Below, piece after piece: positions 6,182-39,751 of a stretch of DNA of 47,670 bases. Each line of letters begins with the position of its first letter. The stretch's first letter is position 1. Origin of the DNA: an uncultured Gammaproteobacteria bacterium (lineage in GTDB: Bacteria > Patescibacteriota > Microgenomatia > UBA8517 > UBA10165). Under the pieces are notes generated by a model, which was not told the DNA's origin, made no database searches, and saw nothing but the letters and a program-made list of their open reading frames with translations. Position numbers and translations under genes: made by a program. Where the stretch lies: NCBI GenBank assembly GCA_964366515.1, contig CAYIUF010000004.1, positions 1 to 47,670 of the forward strand, read 5' to 3'.

Positions 6182-8365
6182 CTATTTAAAATAGTATAAT
6201 TTTGTTTTTTTTATTTGTGTCATGCATGTGTCTGCTGGAGATAGGTAGAAATTTATATACTGTGCCGCTTGTCCAACAAAGGGTTCTATAAGCTTTCCTG
6301 CTTCGGGCTCTGTTCCCTGAATCTTAATACTAGCCTCTTCAGGCAGTACACCTGGTATCCTTTCCCACTGTTGCCCATTTTTTGAGACCATAAAATACCC
6401 CCACGCCAGCTCAGAACAGCCAGTATCATCATATTCTATTTCCAGGCGAGACAGCTTTACTGGCTTGCCAATATCAAAAGACACGGCTCCATCGTTTTTT
6501 GTATATTTTAAGTCGTTCTGTACGTCCTCGTCTCTCCACTCTGGCCTAAGATGTTCCTTGTCATTTTTCCAAATCTTTAAGATTGGAACACTATCAACTG
6601 TTATTTCGTATACAGGTATAACCAGTTTGTCTAAGTATGTATCATAGTAAGAGCGGTTGTCTGTACCATGGAATCTTAGTGAGATCACATATTCACCCTT
6701 TTGAAGATACCCGCTTCTGCTAATTTTATAATCTATATCTGGACGTATAAAGGTGCCAGGAATATTGCTTAAGATTTCAACACCAAGGGTCAACGTTGCG
6801 CCAGGTTCAGCATTCTTGTTGATCCACTGGATCGCCTCTCTATATGGAGCTCCAAAAGTTACACCCCAGCCAGGAATGTTGCGGTCTTTGGCGCCTTTCA
6901 GGCCACCTGCAAGAGAGTTAAAGTAGACATTTTCGTTAGGATGGATTTCAATAAGTTTGACTACAATAGGGACAAATAGGAGCAGTATAAGAAACTGAGG
7001 TGCCCAAATGGCGAGATGATTGTGCGGTTTACTCAGTTTAATCGCATAACCATAAACCCATATGACTATTTGTTTTGCTCCAATTCCTACAAATATTGCA
7101 AGAGCGGGTATGTACTCCATGATTTGTCTAACTCCACCGTAAATATTTGTACCGGGCCAGGTTACTCGTGCTACCGGAACTATTAGCCAAAGTAAGAAAA
7201 GTAAGGGTGTCATGTCTTTATCGTCAAATTTTCTAAATGCAATTGATATAACTCCTATTGCTGCTATGAATAATATTGCAAGCGGGGTTGTATATAAGAT
7301 CCATTGGATTGCGTAAGTGTTTATTCCCATTGGACCAATAAAACGCTCGTCAAAGCCACCTGACGTACCTATGGTTTTATAGAAATCTACGATTCTTGCA
7401 ATCTTGTATCCTGGATCGGACCAAAACTCAGGCCAAGTTCCAAGAAAAATAGAAATTCCAATGATTGGAGCAACAATCGCTGCAATTACAATCTTTATGT
7501 TTTTTTTGAGGAATGTGCGAATGGAAAGATTTTTCGGGCTCTTGCTAGCTAAATAAACAACAAGCCACGGCGTGATAACAAATACCGAGAACAAAATATT
7601 AAACTTTGTTCCTAACGCGAGCCCAAAGAATAAGCCAGAGGCAAGAAGCCATTTCCAGCTCTTGGTTGTAACCCCTTTCCAAGCTGAGAACAACATAAAA
7701 CTCCAAAAAACAGTTTCTGGGATATCCTTTTCGTTATTAAAATGTGATTCGGCCCAAAAAAGTGGATAAACTGAAAGCGATAAAGCGGCTACAACTCCAG
7801 CGAACCGTCCATATAATTTTGCGGTCCACCAAAAGACTAAACCTACTAATAGACTTGCTAACAGAACTCCATATATACGGTACGAATCAATATCGTTTAA
7901 TACTCCAAGCTTTTGATATAGTATCCGGTTAAATACAGAAGCCAAAACGTCGCTTATATGCGGGTGTCCGAAATCATAACGCTCTATGTTTCGAAATATT
8001 TCATCAGGATATTGGAAGATGCTTATTCTCGGTAACTCACTTCTGGGGATATCGGGGCTGAAAAGTATTGTGTCTGGATTTTGAAAATATAACCTATGTC
8101 TTGGCGCTTCATTATTGGCAGTCTTTGCTTGAACATCCTTCTCTTTCTTTGTATATAAATTCCAGTTTTCTACTCGAGTAAGGTCTTTGTCTCCGGTAAG
8201 GTAGTAATGAAGAAATGCTTGGCCTCTTGAAAGATGGCTTGCTGCATCCCAGTTAATGCCATAATCTTTTAACGTAAATAAGGCTATTACCAAGAACGAT
8301 ATGGAAACGAGAATTGAAAGAAGTAAGTTTCGATTAATTTGCAAGATCTTCATATATTTTTCCAA
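6182..8365 (-). CDS. GT-C-fold membrane glycosyltransferase (PMT/ArnT-like) with large soluble C-terminal domains
   Basis: YGINWD after the first TM, multiple TM helices, NxKD, ALGTKFN and YGGVRQI motifs; ~250-aa hydrophilic C-terminus; clear paralog of 17761-19920. Confidence 0.75.
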   Translation of the reverse strand: MEKYMKILQINRNLLLSILVSISFLVIALFTLKDYGINWDAASHLSRGQAFLHYYLTGDKDLTRVENWNLYTKKEKDVQAKTANNEAPRHRLYFQNPDTILFSPDIPRSELPRISIFQYPDEIFRNIERYDFGHPHISDVLASVFNRILYQKLGVLNDIDSYRIYGVLLASLLVGLVFWWTAKLYGRFAGVVAALSLSVYPLFWAESHFNNEKDIPETVFWSFMLFSAWKGVTTKSWKWLLASGLFFGLALGTKFNILFSVFVITPWLVVYLASKSPKNLSIRTFLKKNIKIVIAAIVAPIIGISIFLGTWPEFWSDPGYKIARIVDFYKTIGTSGGFDERFIGPMGINTYAIQWILYTTPLAILFIAAIGVISIAFRKFDDKDMTPLLFLLWLIVPVARVTWPGTNIYGGVRQIMEYIPALAIFVGIGAKQIVIWVYGYAIKLSKPHNHLAIWAPQFLILLLFVPIVVKLIEIHPNENVYFNSLAGGLKGAKDRNIPGWGVTFGAPYREAIQWINKNAEPGATLTLGVEILSNIPGTFIRPDIDYKISRSGYLQKGEYVISLRFHGTDNRSYYDTYLDKLVIPVYEITVDSVPILKIWKNDKEHLRPEWRDEDVQNDLKYTKNDGAVSFDIGKPVKLSRLEIEYDDTGCSELAWGYFMVSKNGQQWERIPGVLPEEASIKIQGTEPEAGKLIEPFVGQAAQYINFYLSPADTCMTQIKKTKLYYFK

Positions 8366-9557
8366 ATCTTGCGCTGGTTTTTTTCCAAGGATATTTTTCT
8401 CGTATCAGTTCTAAACCATTTTTCGATAGTTTTTCTCTTAGTGTGTTATCCGAAAAGATGGAAATTATATTCCTTGCAAGTGCTTTATAGTCTTTTTCTT
8501 CAAATAAGAGGCCATTTGTCTTTCCATCCACAGAATCTACCAGCCCACCCGATCTGCTTGCCACAACTGGAGTTCCAGAGGCCCTCGCCTCTAAAACAAC
8601 ATTCCCTTGCCCTTCTCTTTCTCCTGTTTCTGGGATAGTTATAGATGGAGAAACAACAACATCTGCGGAAGCATAAACTGTGGGCAACATGCCTGGGCCT
8701 AGTGACCCTAAGAGCTGCATGTTTTTGTCTACCCCTAAATGTTTTGCCAATTCTCTCAAGTTTCCTTCTTCTGGTCCTTTCCCGACTATTAAAAGACTTG
8801 TTTCAGGAAATTTCTTTAAAACTCTTGGCAACGCACGAACTAGGTATTCAAACCCCTTCCACTTAATGAGCCTGCCAACGCCTAAAATTATCTTTGAATT
8901 ATTCCCAAATTGTTTTTTCCAGTCGAGATCTTTGTTCTTCTTATCAAACTCTTTAATGTCTACTCCCATATGGACTATTGCTGCATTTGTTTTTGGATAC
9001 ACTTTTAGAACTTCCTCATATGTTGCCGAGCTGTTTGCTGTACAAATGTCACAATATTTGAGGATGAAGCCTTTTATGAAGTTCGTCTTTTTGACAGCAA
9101 AAATGTCGGTGCCATGAACTGTAATGACGACGGGCTTCCTAAACATAAACTTTGCGATTATTGCAACAAGCCCTTGGGGAATAATCCAGTTTGCGTGGAT
9201 TAGATCATAATTTCCCGAAGCCATAAGCCTTAATGTCGATAAGAGCTCAGCCAATACAAATGTAACTACTTGAATTGCGCCTAGGAGTTTTCTTTTTTTG
9301 CTAGTATAAAGCACACCCTCACCCGAAGTTAGAATTTGCAAAGATGGAGGGAAAAAATAGGTAAACCTCTTTACTTTTATTCCTTCAAGAGTTTCTGAGG
9401 ATTTTGCTCCAGGTGCGCTTGGAGCAAGAACCGTAATATCATACTTCTTCAAGTCCATATTGCTATATATGGATAAGACTGCCCGTTGCCACCAATCCTC
9501 CTTATGTCTTGGGAACGAGCTTGTTAGAACTAGTACTCTAATCTTTTTTGCTGTCAT
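8334..9557 (-). CDS. GT4 glycosyltransferase
   Basis: HANW, VGRLIKWKG and EGQGNVVLEA (ExxxxxxxE) motifs. Confidence 0.9.
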   Translation of the reverse strand: MTAKKIRVLVLTSSFPRHKEDWWQRAVLSIYSNMDLKKYDITVLAPSAPGAKSSETLEGIKVKRFTYFFPPSLQILTSGEGVLYTSKKRKLLGAIQVVTFVLAELLSTLRLMASGNYDLIHANWIIPQGLVAIIAKFMFRKPVVITVHGTDIFAVKKTNFIKGFILKYCDICTANSSATYEEVLKVYPKTNAAIVHMGVDIKEFDKKNKDLDWKKQFGNNSKIILGVGRLIKWKGFEYLVRALPRVLKKFPETSLLIVGKGPEEGNLRELAKHLGVDKNMQLLGSLGPGMLPTVYASADVVVSPSITIPETGEREGQGNVVLEARASGTPVVASRSGGLVDSVDGKTNGLLFEEKDYKALARNIISIFSDNTLREKLSKNGLELIREKYPWKKTSARFGKIYEDLAN

Positions 9558-10327
9558 GATTTCTTTTTTGCGACAATTAAGTATTCAAGAGGAAAGTAAT
9601 TTGGATATTTGGGGAATATTTTTGATAGCTCGTTAAGTATCAGTATTAGTAAATTGCTTAACATGATTGCGGGTATAGAAAACAAAATTAATGGAATTAA
9701 CAAAAGGAGTGAGGTGAATTTAAAATCGTTTAATAATATATCGTTTATTCTCTTGACTAGAAATGTATTTAAAAGCTGCAGCCAGAACTCAAAAAAACCT
9801 CCTTGTGCTTTTAACTTAACAACGTTGAGCGATGCCTCGCTTGCGAAACTTTTTAGAGCTGTTTTAGTATATCTTCCCCAATCGTAAGGCATATCGTGGA
9901 GTGGGTATAGAAATGGCACTGAGACAATAAGCACTCCCCCGGGCTTAAGCACCCTCCCTGCTTCCTTTATAACTTTTTCTGGAGAGTCGACATGTTCTAG
10001 AACTTGAATTAGGAGTGCAGTGTCGAAAGTGTTATTTTGAAAGGGAAGTTCTTTTGCATCTGCTAGCACGTCAGGGGGTTTATCAGAGGTGTAAAGTTTT
10101 GAAACTTTCGGGTGGTCTACTCCGACATATGAATCTACGAGAGGTTCGAATTCTCCCTTATGTGGCATTCGACCACAGCCGATATCGATAAGTTTTCCTT
10201 TTGCGTATTTTTTGGCAACTTCCACTGCTTCTCTCTGGAATTTTATTACAGTAAATTGCGGGTGGATAATTGTTCCGCCCAAAACCTCCGTAAAAACAAC
10301 CCACAGTCTTTTTGTTAAGTTTTTCAT
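9554..10327 (-). CDS. Class I SAM-dependent methyltransferase (Methyltransf_11)
   Basis: IDIGCG, QVLEH, RVLKPGG and PFLYPLHxxPYD motifs; start placed at ATG 10327 behind a TATATT box. Confidence 0.87.
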   Translation of the reverse strand: MKNLTKRLWVVFTEVLGGTIIHPQFTVIKFQREAVEVAKKYAKGKLIDIGCGRMPHKGEFEPLVDSYVGVDHPKVSKLYTSDKPPDVLADAKELPFQNNTFDTALLIQVLEHVDSPEKVIKEAGRVLKPGGVLIVSVPFLYPLHDMPYDWGRYTKTALKSFASEASLNVVKLKAQGGFFEFWLQLLNTFLVKRINDILLNDFKFTSLLLLIPLILFSIPAIMLSNLLILILNELSKIFPKYPNYFPLEYLIVAKKKS

Positions 10328-10358
10328 TGTCAGCAATATATATGTTACCATTAGCCTC
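10328..10358. promoter_or_regulatory. Divergent -10 pair (putative leaderless promoters)
   Basis: TATATT (minus, 10335-10340) 7 nt before ATG 10327; TG-n-TACCAT (plus, 10343-10351) 7 nt before GTG 10359. Confidence 0.55.
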
Positions 10359-11483
10359 GTGAAATACAAAAAGGTGCTGGTAACAGGGGGTGCTGGATTT
10401 ATCGGATCTCACACTGTTGACCTTCTTCTTAAAAAGGGATATAAGGTCCGAGTCCTGGACAACCTTCAGGAACGAGTTCACCCAAAAGGTAAGCCAAAAT
10501 ATCTCCCTAGGGAAGTTGAATTTGTTAAAGGAGATGTGACAAATCCTAAGGATTTACTTAGAAGCTTAAAAGGGGTTGACGCTGTTTTCCACCTCGCCGC
10601 ATACCAAGACTATATGCCTGACTTCTCCCGCTTTATCCATACTAACTCTGAAAGTACAGCACTTTTATTTGAATTAATTCTCGCCCACAAATTACCTATT
10701 AAGAAAATCGTTTTTGCATCCTCTCAGTCTGTAGCTGGTGATGGGAAATGGAAATGCAAAACCCACGGAGAGTTCTGGGCCGAGCAGCGGCCAGTAGAAC
10801 AGTTACAAAAGGGCGAGTGGGATCTTAAATGTCCAAAGTGTAAAAAGCCTGCTAAGAATGTTCTAATGACAGAAGACATTGCTAAACCAATCACAACCTA
10901 CGGAGTCTCGAAATACACAATCGAATTGTTAGCTGACGTTTTAGGGAAGAAATACAATATCCCCACGGTTTGTTTGCGTTATACCTATGTGCAAGGGCCA
11001 AGGAACTCAATTTATAACGCGTATTCAGGAATAGCCAGAATTTTTGCTCAACAAATTCTAAACAACAGGAGGCCTATTTTGTTTGAGGATGGCCTTGGCC
11101 TTCGCGACTACATTAGCGTTTTTGATGTTGCAAGGGCAAACGTACTCGTTTTAGAAGATGACCGCGCGAACAACAAGGTTTATTTTGTTGGTGGAGGCAG
11201 GGCATATACAAACCTAGAATTCGCAAATACTATGCTAAAGGTATTTGACAGTAAGCTAGAACCTGAAATTCCAGGTCACTTCCGTTTAGGGGACACTCGC
11301 TCAACCGTTTCTAGCATTAAGGCTATTGGAAAACTTGGCTGGAAGCCAATGGTCAGCCTAGAACAATCAATGAGTCAGTATCGTGAATATGTCGAAAGTC
11401 TAGGAAAGATCGAAGATCGTACACATGAAAGCTTTAAGAAGATGGTCGAGCTTGGGATTATTAGAAAAGTCAACAAGTTATGA
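10359..11483 (+). CDS. NAD-dependent nucleotide-sugar epimerase/dehydratase with CxxH...CxxC insertion
   Basis: GGAGFIGSH, HLAA, YGVSK and RDYISV motifs; likely start GTG 10359 rather than the track's 10212. Confidence 0.87.
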   Translation: MKYKKVLVTGGAGFIGSHTVDLLLKKGYKVRVLDNLQERVHPKGKPKYLPREVEFVKGDVTNPKDLLRSLKGVDAVFHLAAYQDYMPDFSRFIHTNSESTALLFELILAHKLPIKKIVFASSQSVAGDGKWKCKTHGEFWAEQRPVEQLQKGEWDLKCPKCKKPAKNVLMTEDIAKPITTYGVSKYTIELLADVLGKKYNIPTVCLRYTYVQGPRNSIYNAYSGIARIFAQQILNNRRPILFEDGLGLRDYISVFDVARANVLVLEDDRANNKVYFVGGGRAYTNLEFANTMLKVFDSKLEPEIPGHFRLGDTRSTVSSIKAIGKLGWKPMVSLEQSMSQYREYVESLGKIEDRTHESFKKMVELGIIRKVNKL

Positions 11484-12196
11484 TAGGTGTATTACTAGCT
11501 GCGGGTGCAGGGACTCGATTATCGCCCATCACCAAAGTTTGCAATAAACTTGTACTGCCTATATACGACAAACCGATGATTTACTATCCTCTGCAAACTC
11601 TTCTCGACTCTGGAATTTCAGAAGTCGTAGTAGTAGTTGGGGAGTTCAAGGAGCAAATTAAAGTGTTAATTGAGCAATTCCCCCACCGCTCCCAACTCAA
11701 AGTTAAGTATGTAATTCAGAAAAAACTAAACGGAATGGCTGGAGCAATAAAGTGTGTGCGCCCATTCACGAGACAAGAAAGTATATTTGTAATTGCCGGA
11801 GATAATGTTTTTGTAAATAACTTTAAGAAAGAGGTTGGTGAGTTTGAAAAGGGTGCAGTGTCTTTCTTGCGGAAGGTATATGATCCTCATTGTTTTGGAG
11901 TGCCATATTATCACGAAAAAAGGCTTATAAAAATTGTAGAGAAGCCTAAAAAGCCACCCACCAACTGGATAGTCTCAGGTCCTCACTTATTCGACAAAAA
12001 TGTTTATTATCACATTGAAAAACTTATCCCCTCAGCCCGGGGCGAACTCGAGATAACAGATCTGAATAGCAGATATATTGATAAAGGTTTGCTTAGACTC
12101 AAAAAACGCACTGACTATTGGGCTGATACCGGAACATTTGAGTCACTTCTTAAGACTAGTGTCATGATCCAAAAGCTAGTACCAAAACGCTCATGA
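11480..12196 (+). CDS. Sugar-1-phosphate nucleotidyltransferase (short RmlA/SpsI-like)
   Basis: LAAGAGTRL, LPIYDKPMIYY, EKP, SARGELEITD and WADTGT motifs. Confidence 0.88.
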   Translation: MIGVLLAAGAGTRLSPITKVCNKLVLPIYDKPMIYYPLQTLLDSGISEVVVVVGEFKEQIKVLIEQFPHRSQLKVKYVIQKKLNGMAGAIKCVRPFTRQESIFVIAGDNVFVNNFKKEVGEFEKGAVSFLRKVYDPHCFGVPYYHEKRLIKIVEKPKKPPTNWIVSGPHLFDKNVYYHIEKLIPSARGELEITDLNSRYIDKGLLRLKKRTDYWADTGTFESLLKTSVMIQKLVPKRS

Positions 12197-13176
12197 ATGT
12201 AGGAATCATTGGAGCTGGACTAATCGGTAACAAGCGAGCAGTAGCACTTGCTAACTTCAAAAACGACCGCATATTAGCAGTGGCAGACATAGATGAACAA
12301 AAAGCACGAAGTTTGGCGAAGATCTTAGGCTGCGAACACACCACGGACTCAAAGAAGATAGCAACCAACCGCGAAATCGATATCGTAATCGTTTCAACGA
12401 TAAATAAATATCTTGCGCCATTATGCTTACAAGCACTAAAAGCTGGGAAGCATGTGTTGTGCGAGAAACCCCTTGGGGTAAACACAAAAGAGATTGCTAA
12501 ATGCGTAGCTGTTGCAAAGAGAAAAAAGTTGATATATAAGGCTGGGTATAACCACAGGTTTCATCCTGCTATCATAAAGGCACATGAGCTGGTAGACAGT
12601 GGCTCTATTGGAAAACTCATGTTTATTAAGTCTAGTTATGGCCATGGGGCAAGACCTAATTATCACAAAGAGTGGAGGGCAAAAAAGTCCTTATCTGGCG
12701 GAGGGGAACTTCTAGACCAAGGGTGTCATGTGCTTGACCTAATGTTGTGGTTTTCAAAAAAGAAAGTAACACAAGTGCAAGCCTCACTCGGGGCAAAGTT
12801 CTGGCCAATTAGTCCTCTTGAAGATAACGCTTTTGTTTTGCTAGAACTTGGGGACGCATCCGCGAGCTTTCACACGAGTTGGACTCAATGGAAAAATGAG
12901 TTTGTTTTTGAGGTTTATGGCAAAGATGGATATCTTAAAGTAAACGGCTTGGGTGGCTCGTATGGGAAGGAGACACTTATCTTCGGTAAACGAATTCCAG
13001 GAAAAGTACCTATTGAGAAAAGATACGAATTTGATGGGCCAGACGAGTCTTGGATTCAGGAGTGGAAAAACTTTAAGCAAGCGATAAAAGATCCGAAAAA
13101 GTTATTAAGTCCCGGTAGTGAAAGCTTGGAAATAATAGGTATTATTGAAAAAATTTACACCAGTAAAACTAGTTAA
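12193..13176 (+). CDS. Gfo/Idh/MocA-family oxidoreductase
   Basis: GAGLIG, GKHVLCEKP, GYNHRF and GGGELLDQGCH motifs. Confidence 0.9.
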   Translation: MNVGIIGAGLIGNKRAVALANFKNDRILAVADIDEQKARSLAKILGCEHTTDSKKIATNREIDIVIVSTINKYLAPLCLQALKAGKHVLCEKPLGVNTKEIAKCVAVAKRKKLIYKAGYNHRFHPAIIKAHELVDSGSIGKLMFIKSSYGHGARPNYHKEWRAKKSLSGGGELLDQGCHVLDLMLWFSKKKVTQVQASLGAKFWPISPLEDNAFVLLELGDASASFHTSWTQWKNEFVFEVYGKDGYLKVNGLGGSYGKETLIFGKRIPGKVPIEKRYEFDGPDESWIQEWKNFKQAIKDPKKLLSPGSESLEIIGIIEKIYTSKTS

Positions 13177-13178
13177 AA

Positions 13179-14456
13179 TTAACCTCTACCTATACCTACG
13201 TATAAAAAGCCCTGTTTTTTGTAAGCTTCTTTATCAAGAAAGTTTCTTGCGTCAAAAATTATTTTGCTTTTCATGAGTTTGGAGAAGCTTGTGGGTCTTA
13301 GGTTCTTAAAATCATCCCAACCAGTCATTAGAATTAATGCGTCTAGGCCTTTAAAAAATTCATTGTCGTTTTTATAAACAATAAGGTTTTTAAGATTTGA
13401 TCCAGGATTTATTGCTGGATCAATTGCTCTGACTTCAGCTCCAGTCTTCTTAAGCAGGGCTGCTAACTCTATCGACTGAGATCTTCTTAGTGTGTCTGTA
13501 TCTGGTTTATATGTCAGTCCTAGAAGTCCGAGTCTTTTACCCTTTATTGATCCCATTACTTTTGTCATTTTTCTCACTAAGTTTGGTAGTCTTGCTTGAT
13601 TTACTGCGTAGGCCGCGTTAATTATTTTTGGCGAGTATTTAATTTTTCTTGATACCATTTTTAGTGTTTGTAGGTCTCTTCCTAGCGTGCCCCCCGCAAA
13701 TCCTATTCCTGGATTTAAAGGAGCTGTGGCGCTTACTCTCTTGTCTGTTTTTAGCGCTTTCATTACATCTTGACTATCGGCTCCTAATTCCTCACAAAGA
13801 TCACTTATCTCGCTACAAAAACTAATCATCAACGCAAGATATGAGTTAAGTGAGTGTTTGGCTATTTCGGCTGACTCTAACGCCATTTCCAGAAACGGGG
13901 CCTCAAAAAACGAAAAGTCTGATAAAAACTTTTTGCGGGTTTTTGGGTTATCTCCTCCCAACACGATCCTGTCGGGTTTCAGAAATATATTAATTGCCTG
14001 CCCCAGGCGCAAGTTCTCCGGAAGATAAAGTACTTGGTTTCTTTTTCCAGTTTTCTTTAGTTCTCTTTGTACTGCACGTGAAGTACCAACCGGAATCTGA
14101 CTTGATATAACGAGGGTGGTTTTAGGACTTATGTATTTTATTACCAATTCAATGATATTGTTGAATAAGTCCAAGGAAACAATGTCCTGATTGTTTACAG
14201 GGGTGTCAAGCGTAACAAACACATAGTCTTTATCGGAAATTGCCAGTTGAGGGTTACTGGTAAAGTTAAGATTTTCTCCATTATGCTTTTTTATTAACTC
14301 CTTAAGACCCGGCTCAAATAGGGGAGGTTTGTTTTCCTTAAGATTTTCTACAACTTCACTATCTGGATCGAAACCAACAACTTTAAAGCCTTGTTTTGCA
14401 AAACAGGCACTATAAACACAGCCTAAATGCCATAGTCCTACGGTACCGATTTTCAT
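13179..14456 (-). CDS. UDP-glucose/GDP-mannose dehydrogenase-family protein lacking the catalytic Cys
   Basis: PLFEPGL, PENLR, AEIAKH, GLTYKPDTD and FDARN motifs; GFAGGTLGRD replaces the canonical GxGGxCxPKD. Confidence 0.82.
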   Translation of the reverse strand: MKIGTVGLWHLGCVYSACFAKQGFKVVGFDPDSEVVENLKENKPPLFEPGLKELIKKHNGENLNFTSNPQLAISDKDYVFVTLDTPVNNQDIVSLDLFNNIIELVIKYISPKTTLVISSQIPVGTSRAVQRELKKTGKRNQVLYLPENLRLGQAINIFLKPDRIVLGGDNPKTRKKFLSDFSFFEAPFLEMALESAEIAKHSLNSYLALMISFCSEISDLCEELGADSQDVMKALKTDKRVSATAPLNPGIGFAGGTLGRDLQTLKMVSRKIKYSPKIINAAYAVNQARLPNLVRKMTKVMGSIKGKRLGLLGLTYKPDTDTLRRSQSIELAALLKKTGAEVRAIDPAINPGSNLKNLIVYKNDNEFFKGLDALILMTGWDDFKNLRPTSFSKLMKSKIIFDARNFLDKEAYKKQGFLYVGIGRG

Positions 14457-15316
14457 TGTTTTTTCTCGACAAAGTTTTTACCGTCGATTCTTCGAAGTCT
14501 GTAGAGGTTTTTATTAAGTGGCTTTACCTTTTTTAACAGTTCAATCGAATCCCATTTTGCGCTGAGTATGCAACCGGAAATATGATCTGACTCTTTAGAA
14601 GCCAAAAAGGCTACGAGTTTTGCTGAAAGTTCGGGAGGAGTTCCTCCCTTTTGTTTTAATAGTTTGGCCATTTTATACATGTCCTCACCTAACTGTGACT
14701 TTTTTAGTTTAAGTAAATTAAGATTTAAATCTGTGGCGACGCCTCCAGGTGCGATAGCGTTAACTTGGATGTTTTCCGACTCTAGTTCTTGGGCTAAAGT
14801 CTCTGTAAAAGCAGCAATCGCGGCTTTTGAAGTATAGTAGCCCGCAAACCGGGGTAAAGCTTTTGGTCCCCCGACTCCTGCTCCTGACAAATTAATAATC
14901 TTGCCACCTTTTTTTCTTTTCATATAGGGAATGGCTAACTTACTGCAGTGAACAGTCCCTAGTATGTTTATTTTTAGTATTTCCAACCAACCTTCGGGGT
15001 CATTTGTTTCAAGCAGCCCCACTGGTCCGTAAATTCCTGCGTTGTTGACTAACACATCTATCCTCCCCGTTTTTGAATATGCAAAGTTGATAAGCTTTTG
15101 GCAATCCTTAAACTTTGAAACGTCTGCTATTAAAGAATAGACTTTCCCCCTACCTCTTTTAAGTCTGTCCACGGCGATTTCAAGTTGTTCTTTGCTGCGA
15201 GAGCAAATAAACACGTTAGTTACACCTTGGTCTAGAAGTTCTTTTGTAATTGCAAAACCTATCCCTCTCGATCCCCCGGTAACTATGGCTGTTTTACCTT
15301 TTAATGTATTTTCCAT
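14453..15316 (-). CDS. Short-chain dehydrogenase/reductase (SDR)
   Basis: TGGSRGIG, NNAG, YYTSK (YxxxK) and VNAIAPG motifs. Confidence 0.9.
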   Translation of the reverse strand: MENTLKGKTAIVTGGSRGIGFAITKELLDQGVTNVFICSRSKEQLEIAVDRLKRGRGKVYSLIADVSKFKDCQKLINFAYSKTGRIDVLVNNAGIYGPVGLLETNDPEGWLEILKINILGTVHCSKLAIPYMKRKKGGKIINLSGAGVGGPKALPRFAGYYTSKAAIAAFTETLAQELESENIQVNAIAPGGVATDLNLNLLKLKKSQLGEDMYKMAKLLKQKGGTPPELSAKLVAFLASKESDHISGCILSAKWDSIELLKKVKPLNKNLYRLRRIDGKNFVEKKQ

Positions 15317-15362
15317 ATCGTGATTGTATCATACAAAATTTGTGATACTATCGGTATGTTAT
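15317..15362. promoter_or_regulatory. Divergent extended -10 pair
   Basis: TG-n-TACAAT (minus, hexamer 15323-15328) 6 nt before ATG 15316; TG-n-TACTAT (plus, 15346-15351) 11 nt before ATG 15363. Confidence 0.55.
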
Positions 15363-16349
15363 ATGATAATAACAAGGGCTCCATTTAGAATACCTTTAGG
15401 CGGAGGCGGAACGGATCTTCCATCTTATTATTCAAAATTTGGCGGAAAGCTTATTTCCGTTGCGATAGATAAATATATTTTAACTACTGTAAACCACCCG
15501 GTAAGTGATGACCTTATACGGCTTAAGTATTCAAAATCTGAAACAGTTAAGACAACTGCCCGTGTCAAACACCAATTAATTAAAGAGGCATTGGCTCTTA
15601 CAGGCATAAAACGCGGTATTGAACTCTCTTTCATTGCTGATATCCCAGCAGGCACTGGCATGGGTTCTTCGGGAACTTTCTTAGTGTCAATGCTAAAAGC
15701 AATCCATGCATTTAAAAAAGAAGAGGCGCCCGCTGGAAAAATTGCTGCGGAGGCCTGCCATATCGAGATTGAACGTTTGAACAGTCCAGTTGGTAAGCAA
15801 GACCAGTATATGGCAGCGTTCGGGGGAATTACCCAATTAACAATTGATAAAAAGGGGCATGTAGATGTCGATCAGCCAATTTCATCAAGATCTACCATTG
15901 AAGACCTCGAAGGAAGTTTGGTTCTTTTCTTTACGGGCATAAAGCGATCCGCAGGCGAGGTGTTAAACCTTCAAAATAAATCAACTCAAAACGGTGACAA
16001 AAAAGTTATTGATAGTCTTCATTATATTAAAGAGCTTGGTGAGGAAATAACAAAGACTCTCAAAAGAGGAGATATTAATAAATTTGGGATCCTACTTAAT
16101 ATGCATTGGGAGCACAAATTAAAACTTTCTGGAAAGATTTCAAATGAAAAAATAAATCGCTGGTACGAGATGGGTATTGATGCGGGAGCTCTTGGAGGTA
16201 AGCTGATTGGTGCTGGTGGCGGAGGATTTCTGTTGTTTTGTTGTCCGGGGGATAAAAAGAATTTAAGAAGGGCTATGGAGAGTGCGGGCTTGAAAGAAGT
16301 TTTCTTTAAGTTTGATTTTGACGGGGCAAAGGTTTTGGCAGATTTTTAA
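15363..16349 (+). CDS. GHMP-family sugar-phosphate anomeric kinase (HddA/LmbP-like)
   Basis: RAPFRIPLGGGGTD, PAGTGMGSS, GKQDQY and GKLIGAGGGG motifs. Confidence 0.88.
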   Translation: MIITRAPFRIPLGGGGTDLPSYYSKFGGKLISVAIDKYILTTVNHPVSDDLIRLKYSKSETVKTTARVKHQLIKEALALTGIKRGIELSFIADIPAGTGMGSSGTFLVSMLKAIHAFKKEEAPAGKIAAEACHIEIERLNSPVGKQDQYMAAFGGITQLTIDKKGHVDVDQPISSRSTIEDLEGSLVLFFTGIKRSAGEVLNLQNKSTQNGDKKVIDSLHYIKELGEEITKTLKRGDINKFGILLNMHWEHKLKLSGKISNEKINRWYEMGIDAGALGGKLIGAGGGGFLLFCCPGDKKNLRRAMESAGLKEVFFKFDFDGAKVLADF

Positions 16350-17107
16350 CTATTTGTTGGACCAGCTTTGAAGGCATCCTCGTAATCGCGTTGTGCATCA
16401 TCAATAAATCTTTTCGATTGAGGGTGAGCAAGCACCTTTTCCCAAAAAACTTTTGGAGGTATGGTAATTATATGTGCCCCAGACATTTGAGCTTCTCTTA
16501 TATCTTCTTTGGCTCTAATTGACCCAACAATAATCTCAGTTGTAAGTCCGTGTCTTTCAATAAAGTCTCTTGTGTTTTCAATTTCTCTACGCGGATCTGC
16601 TTGAGCGTCTTTCATTCTGTTAAAAAAGAGCGATACATATTGAATTGGTTCACCAACCCGTTCTCCTGCCTTCATATAACATACTGCTTGCTCTGCTGAC
16701 ATTAGGGCCGTCACATTCTTTTTTATTTCTTGTCCTTTAAGGGCTGCTATAAGCTCTAATGCCTTGCCGTCTTCGGTACCCCGAGTCCCCAGAAGATCAG
16801 TGTATGAGGGGATTTTAACAACCACATTTGGGCTAATTGCTGCTGTTTCTATTGCGGCTTTGATTAAATCTGGAAGTTCACCCTTAAGAATTTGAGAGCT
16901 TACAGGAACATCTGGGAAGGCAGATGCTATTTCAAGAAGGTAAGCATTCGGGTCTGAGCCTGCCGCTTCTCTTGCAATAATGCTTGGATTTGTTGTGATT
17001 CCTGTGAATATTCCCAAACCCATTAACCTCTTAAGTTCAGGCATAAGGGCCGTATCGGCGAAGTACTCTGCTATTGCCGGCTTGTTTGCACTATTTTCTG
17101 CTGCCAT
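16346..17107 (-). CDS. Transaldolase-family protein (small TalC/FSA type)
   Basis: FADTA, GITTNPS, VVKIP (Schiff-base Lys), GSIR and GAHIITIPP motifs. Confidence 0.88.
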   Translation of the reverse strand: MAAENSANKPAIAEYFADTALMPELKRLMGLGIFTGITTNPSIIAREAAGSDPNAYLLEIASAFPDVPVSSQILKGELPDLIKAAIETAAISPNVVVKIPSYTDLLGTRGTEDGKALELIAALKGQEIKKNVTALMSAEQAVCYMKAGERVGEPIQYVSLFFNRMKDAQADPRREIENTRDFIERHGLTTEIIVGSIRAKEDIREAQMSGAHIITIPPKVFWEKVLAHPQSKRFIDDAQRDYEDAFKAGPTNS

Positions 17108-17714
17108 TTTTGATAATTTCCTTTAGTTCGAAAATTAGACCGTGGGCAATTACACCATGAAATCCCTCTACAAGTCCAGTACCATAGACTTCGGAGTTTG
17201 TCGGGACAAGCAGACACACATCGGCCATCTTTTTCATTGCTCCCCCATCAAACCCTGAGAACCCAATTATTTTTGCTTTTCGTTTTTTAGCAAGACTCAT
17301 TGCTTGTACCAGGTTCTGAGACCATGGACCTGCTTCCCCAATGCCTGAGCCGCCGTGCACGGAGAATCCAACGAGAACATCTTTTTTAGTAATCCAGGGT
17401 TCGAGTTGACCGGAAAAGACACTTCCCCATCCTTTGTCATTTGTCCATGCACTCACCAAAGGAATGTTGTCAACAAGTCCCATTGCCTTAAATCTCTTTT
17501 TGTTCCTAATGATTGTTGTCTTTGCAATGTCTGCCGCAAAGTGAGTCGCAGTTGATGCCGACCCTCCACAGCCCATTGTATAAATTACACCTCCACGCTC
17601 GTAGCAGCCCATCAGGATTTTCAGTGCCTTCTTATATTCCTTAGAATTTGCATACTTTTTAGAAAAGTTTGAAATCTGCTGAAAATATACGGCTTGCTTA
17701 AACTTCTCGAGCAT
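17091..17714 (-). CDS. SIS-domain phosphosugar isomerase (GmhA/LmbN-like)
   Basis: GCGGSASTATHFAAD, SAWTND, GFDGG and VEGFH motifs; start ATG 17714 behind a TAAAAT box. Confidence 0.85.
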   Translation of the reverse strand: MLEKFKQAVYFQQISNFSKKYANSKEYKKALKILMGCYERGGVIYTMGCGGSASTATHFAADIAKTTIIRNKKRFKAMGLVDNIPLVSAWTNDKGWGSVFSGQLEPWITKKDVLVGFSVHGGSGIGEAGPWSQNLVQAMSLAKKRKAKIIGFSGFDGGAMKKMADVCLLVPTNSEVYGTGLVEGFHGVIAHGLIFELKEIIKNGSRK

Positions 17715-17760
17715 AAACAGGATTTTAGCACATTCTTTTCGAAAAATGATACACTCTATT
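17715..17760. promoter_or_regulatory. Divergent extended -10 pair
   Basis: TG-n-TAAAAT (minus, 17722-17727) 7 nt before ATG 17714; TG-n-TACACT (plus, 17750-17755) 5 nt before GTG 17761. Confidence 0.55.
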
Positions 17761-19920
17761 GTGGTAAAACGTTTTTGGTTTCTTCTTGTTCCACTTATAT
17801 TCTTTTTAGTGTCGGTGGGCACTTTACATCACTACGGGATGAACTGGGATTCCCCTGTACATTTTGCTAGAGGGCAGGCATATCTTCGATATATATTAAC
17901 CGGAAAGACTGATTACAAAGATCTCCCAATGTTTTGCCAGAATGCTAGCAATCTGAATTCTAGAGTCGATATTCAGACTGGAGAGGTTTGCGACCGACAC
18001 AGGAAAGTTAGAGTCAGCGAATATGAAAGTCGCTTAATTGATTTTAATAGCTGGGTCTCTAAGGGTACTTACGGACATCCAGCGTTTAGCGACATTATGA
18101 TTGCCTCAAGTAATGCCGTGTTCTATAAGCAATTAGGATGGATGGAGGATTTAGAGTCGTACCATTTGTATGGCGTGGTTGTTACATTTCTACTTGCTTT
18201 GACTGTCATGTTTTGGGTTCAAAGAACTTTTGGTACTTTTGCATCGATTGTGGCTGTTATAACCCTATATACGGTTCCACTACTCTTTGCAGAACAGCAC
18301 ATGAATGTAAAGGATCCACCTATGGCTGCTTTTTTTGTAATTGCGTTATATTTCTTTTGGTTAGGAGTTACTCAAAAAAAAGCAAAGTATATTATCTTGT
18401 CAGCCCTTGCCGGGGGTGCATCATTTAGTACTAAGTTAAATTTTGTCTTTGCCCCTTTTGTTCTTTTCCCCTGGTTTCTTGTGTTCTCATTTAGTCAACT
18501 TAAAGAAAAACTATCAACTGTTAAGAAATTATCGTTTGGAAAAATTCTTGGAAGTATTCTTAATCTCTACCCAAAGCGAATACTAGGAGCGTTTGCTGCA
18601 TATCCGCTGATAGTCTTCTTTTTTTTCTTTTTTAGCTGGCCTGCTTTGTGGATTGATCCTGCAAAGAGTTTATATGAAGTTATTCGTTACTACACAGATA
18701 TTGGCGGTGCAACATGTAGTTATACATATTTCTCGCTTCATTGGTTTCTAAAATGTACTCAGACTACTACACTTCAGTATTTTTTCTATACGATGCCTCC
18801 AATATCAATAGCTCTACTTCTCGTAGGTTCTGTTGTTGCAGTGTTTAGATTCAGAGAGAACAACTATGTAACTATACTTTGGCTCACACTTTTCTACTTC
18901 ACGATAACGAGGGTTACTCTCTCTGTGACAAACATTTATGGTGGCTTGAGACAAATTATGGAGTATATTGCTCCAATGGCAATGATTGCCGGTATTGGCG
19001 CGCTCTTTATAAGAGACTTGTTAGTAAAAGCTTTTTCTCGGTTGTTTAAAAAATTAATGCTAAGCAGTAAAGTACTCGTCTCAACTATATCCGTAGTTGT
19101 TGTCTTGGGTTTTGTACCAATACTTATTGAGTTACAAAAAATCCATCCTAACCAGAACGTCTACTTTAACTCATTCATAGGTGGGTTAAAGGGAGCAGCT
19201 GAGAGCGATTTTCCAGGACACGGTAACAGTTACGGGAATGCATTACTTCAGGGAGTTCGTTGGTTAAACGCGAACGCGGAGCCTAACGCTACACTGGCTT
19301 TGGTATCAGGTAATGCGCAGAACATTTCCAGAGCAACGTTACGAGAAGACATTCTCTTTTCCAATGGAGCTCGAAGTGGTTTCAATCAAGAGGGGGAGTA
19401 CCAAATGCTTATGGTAACAGGCCAAGATCTATTTAGAAATACATTTAGATATCAGTACTTATATAACTTTTTACGTCCTATCTATGAGATTAAAGTTGAT
19501 GATGTTGCGATCCTTAGAATATGGAAGAACAGCAAAGAGTATTCAAATAATACTCAGGGTGTGATTGAGCAATTTGAAAGAGCTGAGTCTGTAGTGGATG
19601 AGAAAAAGGAAACAGTCTTTAAACTCAAAGAACGAAAGGCACTGAAGACTCTAACAGTTTTATTGCCTAACGCCACATGTAAAGAAAAGGCCGTCGGTGC
19701 GTCTGTGTATATTTCTGACGATGACGCTCGCTATTTACCGAAAGACGAGGGACTCGGCAATTTCTCAGAACGTGAAGTGGCTGGATATAATGCTGACTTT
19801 GTTGTCCTCTTCCCAGGAGACGAAGCTCAGTATATAAAAGTTGTTTACCCTAAAAATTATCCTTGCGAACAGGACAAGACCCGCTTCCAACTCTTTACCC
19901 TTAAGGAAGATAGTCGCTAA
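17761..19920 (+). CDS. GT-C-fold membrane glycosyltransferase with large C-terminal domains (paralog of 6182-8365)
   Basis: YGMNWD, RGQAYL, NVKD, YGGLRQIMEYI and IHPNQNVYFNS shared with the paralog; start may be ATG 17746 or GTG 17761. Confidence 0.75.
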   Translation: MVKRFWFLLVPLIFFLVSVGTLHHYGMNWDSPVHFARGQAYLRYILTGKTDYKDLPMFCQNASNLNSRVDIQTGEVCDRHRKVRVSEYESRLIDFNSWVSKGTYGHPAFSDIMIASSNAVFYKQLGWMEDLESYHLYGVVVTFLLALTVMFWVQRTFGTFASIVAVITLYTVPLLFAEQHMNVKDPPMAAFFVIALYFFWLGVTQKKAKYIILSALAGGASFSTKLNFVFAPFVLFPWFLVFSFSQLKEKLSTVKKLSFGKILGSILNLYPKRILGAFAAYPLIVFFFFFFSWPALWIDPAKSLYEVIRYYTDIGGATCSYTYFSLHWFLKCTQTTTLQYFFYTMPPISIALLLVGSVVAVFRFRENNYVTILWLTLFYFTITRVTLSVTNIYGGLRQIMEYIAPMAMIAGIGALFIRDLLVKAFSRLFKKLMLSSKVLVSTISVVVVLGFVPILIELQKIHPNQNVYFNSFIGGLKGAAESDFPGHGNSYGNALLQGVRWLNANAEPNATLALVSGNAQNISRATLREDILFSNGARSGFNQEGEYQMLMVTGQDLFRNTFRYQYLYNFLRPIYEIKVDDVAILRIWKNSKEYSNNTQGVIEQFERAESVVDEKKETVFKLKERKALKTLTVLLPNATCKEKAVGASVYISDDDARYLPKDEGLGNFSEREVAGYNADFVVLFPGDEAQYIKVVYPKNYPCEQDKTRFQLFTLKEDSR

Positions 19921-20492: not shown

Positions 20493-21443
20493 TTATTCAA
20501 GAGGTTTTTTCTGTGACATTGCAAACACAATAAATACGGTCAAAGCTTCACTTATAAGTGAGCTAATGCGAAACAGTATTGCAATAAAACCTGCAATTGC
20601 GAGTGGGACATATGTTGTTAGCAAACCAGTGATTGAAGCCTCGCGCACTCCGAGTCCTGAAGGGGCTAGAAAAGCCAAATATCCAATAACCCATGAAGCT
20701 GAATAGATACCTATAAATGGGAAGATATTGGCTGGATTAAGCTGTGTTGCTCCTGTCGCATTGACTATTGATGCAGTAAAAAAAAGCGCAAGGCCGGCCA
20801 GTATGAATTGTGTTAGGACGCTTAAACAGATTAGAGGAAGCAGCAGCAAGTTTGCATTAACAAGTCTTGATCTACCTTTATCCAAAGCAGTTTTGATTGA
20901 GCTCTTAAGCTGGGCTAATTTACTTTTTGCTAAAGTGGCAATTGCTACTACTGCCAACAATGTCAATACAATAACCAGCGGTGGAGAAACGTGGGAATTT
21001 AGAAAAAATTTTTGTGGGTCAACAATACTAAGATTTATTGTGAGTAAGGCGATTATGCTTCCCGCAGCTACATTGAGCCCCGCCTCTAGCAAAAGCGCTG
21101 TTGTTGTGAATGATTTACTAATCCCCTTTTGGGAAAGCATATATACTCGACCTGCATATTGCCATACACTTCCAGGAAAGAAACGGGCTGCGTTTGAATA
21201 TGTCCAAATTTTGAAGTTATCTTCAAAACGTATATTTCCACCAAGGAATTTTGTCATAAGGTGCCAAGAAAGAGCGTTTACAAACGGTGCCGGGAGAAGA
21301 ACAAGCATCAAAGGTATCAGGTTTGTATACTCAAGCTTCCACTGGATGTTTTTTATTTGGTCGAATCCTTCAATTATTTTCCAGACCAAAACTACAAAGA
21401 GTAAGGTAACCAGAATATAGGATATTGTTTTTTTTTGTTTCAT
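20493..21443 (-). CDS. Lysylphosphatidylglycerol-synthase TM-domain protein (UPF0104/putative flippase)
   Basis: Multi-TM; RFFPG, PSGLGVREA and LFR motifs. Confidence 0.8.
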   Translation of the reverse strand: MKQKKTISYILVTLLFVVLVWKIIEGFDQIKNIQWKLEYTNLIPLMLVLLPAPFVNALSWHLMTKFLGGNIRFEDNFKIWTYSNAARFFPGSVWQYAGRVYMLSQKGISKSFTTTALLLEAGLNVAAGSIIALLTINLSIVDPQKFFLNSHVSPPLVIVLTLLAVVAIATLAKSKLAQLKSSIKTALDKGRSRLVNANLLLLPLICLSVLTQFILAGLALFFTASIVNATGATQLNPANIFPFIGIYSASWVIGYLAFLAPSGLGVREASITGLLTTYVPLAIAGFIAILFRISSLISEALTVFIVFAMSQKKPLE

Positions 21444-27644: not shown

Positions 27645-27755
27645 AACAGAACCCGAGAAAACCGCGAGCTTCTAGCTCGGGGATGAATCGGATTCTGGTA
27701 TGTCGTTCTCGCTTCGGCGAGAAACCGCGGACTTTCAGTCCGCGGAGAACGTCAT
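27645..27755 (+). mobile_element. Non-autonomous IS200/IS605-type hairpin element (PATE/MITE-like), copy 1
   Basis: Left hairpin ccgcgagct-tct-agctcgggg, middle cTTCGg hairpin, right hairpin GAAA-ccgcggact-ttc-agtccgcgg, terminal TCAT; homologous to 34329-34436. Confidence 0.75.
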
Positions 27756-29369
27756 AATCTTGAAGGCTGTTCTCCCGCTTGGGAAGTATATCTCCTTTGA
27801 GACGTTGGCTCCATCGGGCACTTCCTCTGGCGAGCCTGCAATTGTATATTTTGGGTATTTGGCAATTGTGGTTTCCCAATCTGAGTCTAGTCCAAACGAG
27901 TATCGATCAAAGCTTTCAACTGTCGAGAAGCCAAACTTGTCCCTTGAGGTTAAGGAATGTTCGGCTTGGAACTTGTCTGGTGGGTACTTCAAGTAAAACA
28001 AAAACAGAATGTAAGGCTGATCGTATCTTGTGGTCACCAAAAACTGTTTATTGTTGGCTTGTTCTTTCGTAAACAATACAAGTTCTTTGACTCCGTATTG
28101 AGAAGAATAGTCATATGTCTTTGGCATGTGTACATAATAGTTGTGGAGATAGCGAGTAAAGTCCCAAAAGATAAAAATGACAAATGACAAATGACAAATG
28201 ACAAATAGCCCGTGGTTGTTCTTAAGACGTTGAAGCCATGTCGCGATGTTCCATAACCCGTATGCACTTATGACGGTGAGAGGAACTATCATATTTTGGG
28301 CGCGGAGAGCATGGGGGGATTGAAAGGTTAATGCGGCAGGAATTGGGGCAACCACTAGCCAAAGCAAGATTGGAAACCAACCTTTCCCATTTTTTGCAAT
28401 TGCAAGAAGGCCTGCAATTAAGAAAATTAAATCGAACATATACATTGTCCCCATTTCTGGGACTTTATTTCTCTGAATTAAGTCTCCTGAAATAAAGAGA
28501 AAGTTTCCGTCGAAATGTTCCATATAGTTTCTTGCGAACGCGAGGCCGTAGTTAACCCCCTTGTTGTGCAACAACTTCGTTGAAAGACTTGTAGGGTTAT
28601 CGTGCTCTCCCCTCTGCTCGTCGGTCTTGCTTGTTGGCCCTAAATCTGCCAATAGTCCTACGCCAGAAGCTCGAGAGATACCTGCTGGACCTAATAAATC
28701 TTTTGCTAGGGGTAAAATTAAAACCAAACTCATTACAAGAGTTGCAAAAAAAACTTTTTTATTTTTTCCAAGGACAGCTTTGCGAAACTTTATGAGTAAT
28801 CCTAATGCAAGCAGCGGAACAACAATCCGTGCTGAGTGATATGTGTATAAAGCTGCAATCCATGAAATTGCTGACACAAGCAGCCATTTTTGTTTTTTTG
28901 TAGATTTTAAGAAGCCCCAGAAGCCCAAAGCCATAAAGAACGTTCCAGCATTTGCTTCCCAACCACCTCTTGAAAAATGAAGATGCCAAGGGGAGATTGC
29001 AAGAAAGATAGCAGAAATTTCGGGCAGCCATTTCTTGTCTGGAAAAAGTTCTTTAACTAATAACCAAACCAAAAACACTGTTCCCACACCCAATGTCGCA
29101 CCAGGTATCCGTACTGCCCACTCGTTGAGCCCGAAAACTTTAACAAATGGCATGACCAAGTAAAAATATAATCCGGGTTTGTAATCATTGAACGATTGAA
29201 AATGAATTGGCCACGTATTTGAATGTTCATCTTTGCCTGTTTCCAAAAGTGAGTGCGCGTTATAAACTATTGCGGCCTCATCGGCGTTTAGTGCAGGAAG
29301 TGAGTCAAGTTTATAAAACCTAAGTACGGTTGCAAGAATAATGATGAGGACAATTACTATTTTTTTCAT
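27735..29369 (-). CDS. GT-C ArnT/PMT (GT83/GT39)-like glycosyltransferase
   Basis: LNADEAAIVYNAHSLLETGKDE, SFNDYK, AISPWH.HFSR and YTYHSAR motifs. Confidence 0.85.
   Translation of the reverse strand: MKKIVIVLIIILATVLRFYKLDSLPALNADEAAIVYNAHSLLETGKDEHSNTWPIHFQSFNDYKPGLYFYLVMPFVKVFGLNEWAVRIPGATLGVGTVFLVWLLVKELFPDKKWLPEISAIFLAISPWHLHFSRGGWEANAGTFFMALGFWGFLKSTKKQKWLLVSAISWIAALYTYHSARIVVPLLALGLLIKFRKAVLGKNKKVFFATLVMSLVLILPLAKDLLGPAGISRASGVGLLADLGPTSKTDEQRGEHDNPTSLSTKLLHNKGVNYGLAFARNYMEHFDGNFLFISGDLIQRNKVPEMGTMYMFDLIFLIAGLLAIAKNGKGWFPILLWLVVAPIPAALTFQSPHALRAQNMIVPLTVISAYGLWNIATWLQRLKNNHGLFVICHLSFVIFIFWDFTRYLHNYYVHMPKTYDYSSQYGVKELVLFTKEQANNKQFLVTTRYDQPYILFLFYLKYPPDKFQAEHSLTSRDKFGFSTVESFDRYSFGLDSDWETTIAKYPKYTIAGSPEEVPDGANVSKEIYFPSGRTAFKIMTFSAD
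28175..28206. repeat. Intragenic heptamer tandem repeat (AAATGAC)x~4.5
   Basis: Four perfect aaatgac units plus aaat; encodes FVICHLSFVI. Confidence 0.92.
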
Positions 29370-34330: not shown

Positions 34331-34436
34331 GACGTTCTCCACGGCCTTTAGTCCGCGGTTTCACTCCTGAGAGAGAACGACATATCAAGTTCAATTCCTC
34401 CGCGAATTAAGAATTCGCGGTTTCCTTGAATTTGTT
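34329..34436 (-). mobile_element. Non-autonomous IS200/IS605-type hairpin element, copy 2
   Basis: Minus strand: TCAT|aacaaattcaagGAAAccgcgaatt-ctt-aattcgcgg...tatgtcgttctc...GAAAccgcggactaaaggccgtggagaacgTCAT. Confidence 0.75.
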
Positions 34437-39730: not shown

Positions 39731-39751
39731 ACTTTTCGCTGTCCGCATGTG

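Follow-up and report, generated by a model that had tools for sequence, protein, structure and literature searches.

Which sugar is made by a compact set of carbohydrate genes in a Patescibacteriota genome, and how many carbons does it have? The genes lie on contig CAYIUF010000004.1 of GenBank assembly GCA_964366515.1, within the stretch of 47,670 nucleotides (positions 1 to 47,670) that we analyzed and refer to as the window. The assembly (G000 among our working codes, with the window on its contig C4) comprises 917,969 bases in 80 contigs and is 92.6% complete. Using open reading frame (ORF) calls together with Pfam and NCBIfam models, we found eight intact sugar genes between positions 10359 and 17822, hereafter the cassette. 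They encode an epimerase (EPI), a nucleotidyltransferase (NT), a Gfo/Idh/MocA oxidoreductase (GFO), a short-chain dehydrogenase/reductase (SDR), a homolog of UDP-glucose dehydrogenase (UGDHL), a kinase (KIN), a transaldolase (TAL), and an isomerase (SIS). A further family, a phosphatase (HAD), belongs to copies of the cassette in other genomes.

The original prediction, made from the letters of the window, had described this set as a lincosamide-like octose cassette inside a surface-glycan island. Gene content, synteny, and distribution support a lincosamide-like higher-sugar cassette for the cell envelope. We put at roughly 55% the probability that it is a trimmed-down local form of an uncharacterized but widespread pathway, one that makes a higher-carbon sugar in nucleotide-activated form for use in a surface glycan. 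By analogy with lincomycin biosynthesis, the most likely product would be an octose, at odds slightly better than even. This reading draws on four things that we observed, namely gene content, active-site signatures, synteny, and the distribution of TAL. No description of the cassette's function was found in the literature searched.

Parallels with the lincosamide sugar pathway

Published function tables for lincosamide biosynthesis list LmbR as a transaldolase, LmbN as an isomerase, LmbP as a kinase, LmbK as a phosphatase, LmbO as a nucleotidyl (guanylyl) transferase, LmbM as an epimerase, LmbL as a dehydrogenase, LmbZ as an NAD(P) oxidoreductase, and LmbS as an aminotransferase/transamidase (Table 1 of PMC12945683; Table 2 of PMC4351081). 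In Streptomyces lincolnensis and S. caelestis, the combined action of LmbR, LmbN, LmbP, LmbK, and LmbO yields GDP-octose (PMC12945683; PMC4351081), which LmbM, LmbL, CcbZ, and CcbS turn into GDP-lincosamide (PMC12945683). As quoted in PMC5854111, LmbR transfers a C3 unit onto ribose-5-phosphate to give octulose 8-phosphate.

All families named by the original prediction are present in the window at the place described, and they match the Lmb proteins family by family. Apart from the aminotransferase LmbS, the Lmb proteins listed above make up eight families; six or seven of these occur in the window, and all eight are represented once fuller copies of the cassette, in two distant Patescibacteria (G108 and G185) and in Rhizobium, are included. 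In both systems, a transaldolase stands at the entry point and a UGDH-family protein has a Gfo/Idh/MocA partner; a SIS isomerase with a GHMP kinase and a GalE-like epimerase are also common to the two. In contrast to the lincosamide route, the cassette has an SDR in place of an aminotransferase dependent on pyridoxal phosphate, lacks condensation, thiol, and resistance genes, is set in a glycosyltransferase island, and is spread over many phyla and DPANN archaea. The copy in the window differs further in its RmlA-like NT and in having no phosphatase.

The exchange of aminotransferase for SDR, first proposed for the window, holds more widely. SDR is the usual partner of UGDHL across cassette loci, lying beside it in 46 of the 71 loci of the survey described below, and is sometimes fused to it. 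Among eight longer UGDHL homologs returned, five are UGDHL-SDR fusions, three with a classical SDR (P0122, P0124, and P0126) and two with an extended SDR; the remaining three comprise two Cys-type epimerase fusions and one protein with intein domains, and none of the eight is fused to Gfo. No aminotransferase was found in the window or among 10 ORFs scanned from cassette loci. SDR is the presumed ketoreductase, at the position that LmbS has in the lincosamide route.

UGDHL was correctly predicted to lack the catalytic Cys of UDP-glucose dehydrogenase. When aligned with UDP-glucose 6-dehydrogenase (Ugd/TuaD; PDB 4a7p; E 9e-66), its AGGTLGRD falls opposite GGSCFPKD. The two proteins have in common a three-domain architecture, a match to TIGR03026 (NDP-sugar dehydrogenase subfamily; 318 bits for UGDHL, cutoff 190), and the catalytic Lys, Asn, and Asp positions. 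UGDHL differs in having Thr for the catalytic Cys and (G/A)R for PK, substitutions that mark its family, in an NAD loop where GLWHLG replaces GxGYVG, and in its separate clade. Among the matches listed, GGT[LI].RD was found in 119 of 120 homologs (49 to 70% identity, plus one identical fragment) and G.WH.G in 117 of 120; the W-H loop serves as another strict hallmark of the Cys-less sequences as a clade. The named homologs in that search come from Microgenomates-group candidate phyla.

A UGDH match is present in 125 of 401 Patescibacteria genomes, and only G000 and four others have the Cys-less form (37 to 54% identity); the other matches are 30 to 35% identical to UGDHL, and all 26 that were aligned read GGSC. 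A single branch (SH-aLRT 100) parts 19 Thr/His-type from 26 Cys-type sequences in a tree of 428 columns, which include the motif columns, the groups being defined by the motif itself. Judged by sequence, UGDHL belongs to a separate Cys-less clade and is not a canonical Ugd. Because the thiol is absent, UGDHL would be unable to perform the second of the oxidations by which such enzymes usually form a uronic acid, and such a product is also not expected because Gfo and/or SDR partners always accompany it. NAD binding is uncertain given the Trp in the dinucleotide loop. A predicted complex of UGDHL with GFO scored 0.00, which counts neither for nor against binding. A divergent set, GFO-SDR-UGDHL plus KIN (32 to 41% identity), lies on a 4.7-kb contig (C45, locus L048) of G008, a genome of the same family that is 83% complete; there the motif reads GGHLERD, with His for Thr, and TAL was not found in the genome.

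The partner oxidoreductase and the epimerase also carry intact signatures. GFO has its GxGxxG loop and EKP motif, with G7, G9, E91, K92, and P93 invariant in 41 cassette homologs, and it lies beside UGDHL in 46 of the 71 loci. EPI, whose best PDB match is the UDP-glucose 4-epimerase 4zrm, keeps YxxxK. Between its catalytic Ser region and YxxxK is a Cys-rich insert of about 37 to 40 amino acids (C..H..CPxC) that resembles a small zinc ribbon. The insert is kept in a related genome with the same cassette (G009), and cassettes of Acidobacteriota and Chloroflexota share it as well. Loci with the insert are L012, L058, L069, L089, L095, L115, and L125; other cassette epimerases are without it. The idea that cassettes with the insert-bearing epimerase have no NT was rejected, since a ManC/HddC-like NT turned up a short way beyond the 8-kb loci of G447 and G449; the same query found none in G446 and G448.

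A transaldolase dedicated to the cassette

TAL keeps its Schiff-base Lys (VVVKIP; alignment to 3r8r) and is the sole transaldolase in G000. Of 41 related genomes, only two have a TAL above the Pfam cutoff, and these are G000 and G009, the two with the full cassette. Thirty-eight of the 40 relatives of G000 gave no TAL match, and one more has a fragment below the cutoff (23 bits). A split transketolase occurs in 37 of the 40, including G009 and both genomes of the same genus as G000. Transketolase makes sedoheptulose-7-phosphate directly, and the lineage therefore needs no TAL for that sugar. Transketolase was not found in the G000 assembly. However, rpe lies at the very end of contig C32 (146-763), and in G002, of the same genus, the transketolase gene comes after rpe; the missing gene is thus probably in an assembly gap rather than lost. 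RpiB and RPE are both present in G000.

In larger genomes, the cassette TAL is extra to a housekeeping copy. Specifically, we counted one TAL in G436, two each in G437, G439, and G440, and three in G438. Transketolase was present in all five DPANN or other archaeal genomes, three of which (G441, G443, and G444) have at least two TAL matches each; one archaeal housekeeping TAL lies about 1 kb from transketolase. In a TAL tree of 30 rows, a branch with SH-aLRT 85 separates 25 cassette TALs from three short housekeeping TALs, although support from this tree is modest because it holds only four housekeeping sequences. The dedicated transaldolase of the original prediction is thus borne out by distribution across relatives, by extra copies in larger genomes, and by grouping in the tree: TAL belongs to the cassette and is not a housekeeping pentose-phosphate enzyme. 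A private TAL where sedoheptulose-7-phosphate is already at hand argues for a different aldol product. With ribose-5-phosphate as the acceptor, as in the lincosamide route, that product would be octulose 8-phosphate.

Two further observations concern cassette TALs elsewhere. An apparent TAL fusion at L125 (665 amino acids, with a BY-kinase-like N-terminal part) was set aside as a possible read-through by the ORF caller. The TAL of L113 is close to that of L068, a Bdellovibrionaceae locus (end branches of about 0.07), and the public title of the L113 contig, "Streptomyces griseus," looks wrong given this closeness.

Another known route to an eight-carbon sugar also involves a transaldolase. AprG, as described in PMC13707489, is an atypical transaldolase that makes the apramycin octose by [6+2] condensation. 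AprG shares with LmbR-type enzymes a transaldolase fold and the extension of a sugar to eight carbons. It differs in adding a two-carbon unit to a pseudodisaccharide aldehyde, rather than working on a free sugar phosphate for nucleotide activation, and in having none of the families that accompany TAL in the cassette.

Recurrence, losses, and genomic setting

To place the cassette in a wider context, we followed up the original prediction's suggestion of a synteny survey, and the gene set was found to co-occur well outside the window. Among the 40 relatives, G009 has the only close copy. Its gene order (PMT2, SIS, TAL, KIN, SDR, UGDHL, GFO, EPI, methyltransferase) is that of G000 at 57 to 80% identity, and the seven cassette genes from SIS to EPI are 68 to 80% identical; HAD and NT are absent from that cassette. 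In G108, the order is EPI-KIN-UGDHL-SDR-GFO-SIS-HAD-NT-TAL on one strand. G185, placed in the same class as G000, has all nine genes: EPI, GFO, UGDHL, and SDR share one strand; the opposite strand has an AAA_33 gene, HAD, NT, KIN, and a further gene that is Gfo-like; and after these come TAL and SIS. The two additional G185 genes (locus L044, 11571-12236 and 14650-15771) encode an AAA_33 kinase-like protein and a Pfam-silent, Gfo-like protein with an EKP motif. Locus L103, titled "uncultured Pseudomonadales," has cassette proteins identical to those of G185, and its title looks wrong.

Copies also occur on sequenced replicons of named bacteria. Plasmid 3 of Lawsonia intracellularis carries eight of the nine genes under generic names, in the order SIS-HAD-TAL-(LPG-synthase-TM)-UGDHL-SDR-GFO-kinase-NT. 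In Rhizobium jaguaris, all nine run the same way on the 2.58-Mb chromid pRCCGE525c, and the UGDHL there has GLWHLG and GGTLARD. Two near-homolog searches, with 120 proteins listed in each, returned only generic names and no Lmb name. A plasmid search with a cassette TAL gave no Streptomyces among the matches listed (40 records, ten commonest names).

For the survey, species-representative genomes were scanned for the Thr motif with a degenerate DNA pattern; this gave at least 120 stretches, and 80 loci of up to 8 kb were examined. A UGDHL ORF was found in 72 of the 80 and the GGTL.RD motif in 71. Within these 71 Thr-type loci we counted EPI in 57, SDR and GFO in 46 each, KIN in 36, TAL in 20, NT and HAD in 19 each, and SIS in 16, all of which are lower bounds because the loci end at 8 kb. 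By their record titles, the loci come from Acidobacteriota, Chloroflexota, Verrucomicrobiota, Kiritimatiellia, Bdellovibrionota, Myxococcota, Elusimicrobia, Planctomycetota, Actinomycetota, Saccharibacteria, and DPANN archaea. It could still be argued that unrelated sugar genes came to lie side by side by chance and that TAL is an ordinary pentose-phosphate enzyme, given that the island is packed with sugar genes and that TAL has no second copy in G000. We consider this extremely improbable: the set turns up again in many phyla and in archaea as well as bacteria, fusions tie UGDHL to SDRs, and nearly all of the relatives do without TAL (38 of 40 with no match, one more with a sub-cutoff fragment).

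The window copy deviates from the fuller copies in two activities. Curated NCBIfam equivalog cutoffs are 600 bits for HddA, 209 for gmhA, 300 for HddC, 178 for GmhB, and 361 for rmlA. The window NT has rmlA as its best NCBIfam model (181 bits) and reaches only 49 bits with HddC, as expected from its earlier description as RmlA-like rather than HddC/LmbO-like. Its ORF overlaps both neighbors by 4 nucleotides and is missing between EPI and GFO in G009; it has no close ortholog in that genome, a 36% identical paralog on contig C76 of G000, and 27% identity to the G108 NT. By sequence comparison, it is a lineage-specific insertion in G000. A Pfam scan of the window ORFs agreed with the original prediction that no phosphatase is visible there. 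A tblastn search of the 918-kb assembly with two cassette-type HADs (E 1e-3) also gave no match; G000 has other HAD hydrolases, none assignable to the pathway. In the fuller copies of G108 and G185, HAD is GmhB-like (158 and 120 bits) and NT is ManC/HddC-like (97 and 82 bits with HddC), and HAD is also present in the Lawsonia and Rhizobium copies. In the lineage of G000 and G009, the GmhB-like HAD and the ManC/HddC-like NT have both been lost.

These losses raise the possibility that the G000 cassette is an incomplete remnant that no longer makes the ancestral product, or any product. The failed HAD search, the absence of HAD and NT from the G009 cassette, and the nonorthologous NT of G000 would all fit such decay. 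Despite this, seven genes are intact and 68 to 80% identical between two genera, with catalytic motifs kept, and the inserted NT, overlapping both neighbors, looks like repair rather than decay. Moreover, other HAD hydrolases are encoded in the genome, and the assembly is just 92.6% complete. We therefore regard a remnant as improbable.

The coordinates of the cassette and its immediate neighbors are given in Table 1. Three of the four transcription units have overlapping genes: EPI-NT-GFO on the plus strand (4 nucleotides at each start/stop), SDR-UGDHL on the minus strand (4 nucleotides), and SIS-TAL on the minus strand (17 nucleotides); KIN stands alone on the plus strand. The span first proposed, 10359 to 17714, contains all eight families as claimed, but whether it ends at 17714 or at 17822 is set by the choice of SIS start. 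We favor the ATG at 17714 because G009 conserves only residues 38 to 241 of the long SIS ORF. The true start of KIN may be the ATG at 15363.

Table 1. Genes of the cassette and its flanks in the window
Feature	Coordinates	Strand	Evidence
Class I S-adenosylmethionine (SAM) methyltransferase	9554..10369	-	Pfam Methyltransf_11/23; 66% identical and syntenic in G009
GalE-like extended-SDR epimerase EPI (LmbM-type role)	10359..11483	+	PF01370 in two stretches
RmlA-like sugar-1-phosphate nucleotidyltransferase NT	11480..12196	+	PF00483
Gfo/Idh/MocA oxidoreductase GFO (LmbZ/CcbZ-type role)	12193..13176	+	PF01408 + PF22725
Cys-less UDP-glucose/GDP-mannose-dehydrogenase-family protein UGDHL (LmbL-type role)	13179..14456	-	PF03721, PF00984, PF03720
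Classical SDR	14453..15316	-	PF00106, 179 bits
HddA-like GHMP anomeric kinase KIN (LmbP-type role)	15324..16349	+	GHMP N and C domains
Short FSA/TalC-type transaldolase TAL (LmbR-type role)	16346..17107	-	PF00923
GmhA-like SIS isomerase (LmbN-type role)	17091..17822 (likely start ATG 17714)	-	SIS_2
PMT_2/GT-C membrane glycosyltransferase	17746..19920	+	PF13231; 57% identical and syntenic in G009

The setting is a surface-glycan island, as had been proposed: the 47.7 kb hold about 10 PMT_2/GT-C-type proteins, several glycosyltransferases of families GT2 and GT4, methyltransferases, and a Wzx-type flippase. The flanking methyltransferase may O-methylate the sugar, since it is kept beside EPI in G009, and the flanking PMT_2/GT-C protein is a candidate for moving the sugar onto a surface acceptor. 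The roughly 10 PMT_2/GT-C-type genes are paralogous (6182-8365, 17746-19920, 27735-34342, 35680-41236, and 42493-44301), a strikingly dense array for a genome of 0.9 Mb, and the protein at 35680-38091 carries a fused GT2 domain. Near the cassette, at 20493-21443, is a flippase-like LPG_synthase_TM protein; the Lawsonia cassette itself includes a protein annotated with that domain (L198, 7917-8900), between TAL and UGDHL.

Heptose or octose

Heptoses are well known in surface glycans, and a modified heptose pathway is the alternative that calls for the closest comparison. Here, TAL would merely boost or balance sedoheptulose-7-phosphate, and SIS, kinase, phosphatase, and NT would convert it to an NDP-heptose, whose C6 secondary alcohol UGDHL, Gfo, and SDR would oxidize and re-reduce or otherwise alter. 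The folds and reaction order of the cassette are indeed those of the GDP-D-glycero-alpha-D-manno-heptose pathway (GmhA, HddA, GmhB, and HddC) of S-layers and capsules. The best characterized matches are heptose enzymes as well: KIN scores 164 bits with HddA and has the heptose kinases 3k85 and 4usk as its best PDB matches, SIS scores 80 bits with gmhA, and the phosphatase of other copies matches GmhB models. With transketolase in 37 of 40 relatives, the substrate exists.

Nevertheless, we think a heptose product rather unlikely, for reasons that lie in both the scores and the gene set. All cassette proteins compared, including the HddC scores of 49 to 97 bits for NT and the GmhB scores for HAD, fall under the equivalog cutoffs, for the most part far below. 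Neither a TAL nor the UGDH-like/Gfo pair is required in known GDP-heptose clusters, and the heptose pathway has no UGDHL/Gfo/SDR module. Transketolase-bearing relatives need no TAL, yet TAL occurs only with the cassette, and genomes with both a housekeeping TAL and transketolase still have a second TAL of the cassette type.

Several points nonetheless weigh against an octose pathway. Transketolase should supply sedoheptulose-7-phosphate in the lineage, so a heptose route is feasible, and the nearest characterized relatives of kinase, isomerase, and phosphatase (3k85 and 4usk; the GmhA, GmhB, and HddA models) belong to heptose metabolism. The likeness to Lmb and Ccb proteins is drawn at the level of protein families, from published function tables. 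Judging from its GLWHLG loop, UGDHL may not be a dehydrogenase at all. With no cassette-type phosphatase and a nonorthologous NT, the local pathway in G000 may be different or incomplete. Finally, we know of no plain octose reported in a bacterial surface glycan.

For the octose pathway that we favor, we infer the chemical steps, like the carbon number and the final structure, from enzyme families. TAL would join a C3 unit from fructose-6-phosphate or sedoheptulose-7-phosphate to ribose-5-phosphate, giving octulose 8-phosphate, which SIS would isomerize to the aldose 8-phosphate. The GHMP kinase would then phosphorylate C1, and a phosphatase, cassette-encoded and GmhB-like in other genomes, would strip the terminal phosphate. 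NDP-octose would be formed by a ManC/HddC-like NT elsewhere and by a recruited RmlA-like enzyme here; given the RmlA-like NT, the sugar may be activated with dTDP or UDP instead of GDP. EPI, UGDHL with GFO, and SDR would then modify the side chain, first oxidizing or dehydrating it and afterwards reducing the keto group, leading to a neutral deoxy-octose, as opposed to the amino-octose of lincomycin. The corresponding lincosamide steps are reportedly 6-epimerization, 6,8-dehydration, 4-epimerization, and 6-transamination. Neighboring GT2, GT4, and GT-C enzymes would place the sugar on the envelope.

A broader proposal, which we offer tentatively, is that the cassette represents the envelope-glycan form, possibly ancestral, of the lincosamide sugar pathway, in which NDP-octoses built with a private TAL would be turned into neutral deoxy-octoses by UGDHL and its Gfo and SDR partners. 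Its scope would take in bacteria of more than 10 phyla as well as DPANN archaea, with octoses as common but overlooked surface sugars and a rewiring to RmlA-type activation, with no phosphatase of its own, in the present lineage; this wider claim, too, is possible but falls short of even odds.

Whatever the carbon number, the Cys-less clade marked by GLWHLG and GGTLxRD is large, and the name "UDP-glucose 6-dehydrogenase" that its members bear in public records is very probably wrong. Complete copies of the cassette in the culturable Rhizobium jaguaris make the question directly testable. If the product is an octose, microbes of many kinds would be building their surfaces with a class of sugar known so far chiefly from lincomycin, an antibiotic. 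Among them would be ultra-small candidate-phyla bacteria and DPANN archaea, whose envelopes are poorly understood. An octose product would also suggest that the sugar genes of the lincosamides were recruited from primary envelope metabolism.

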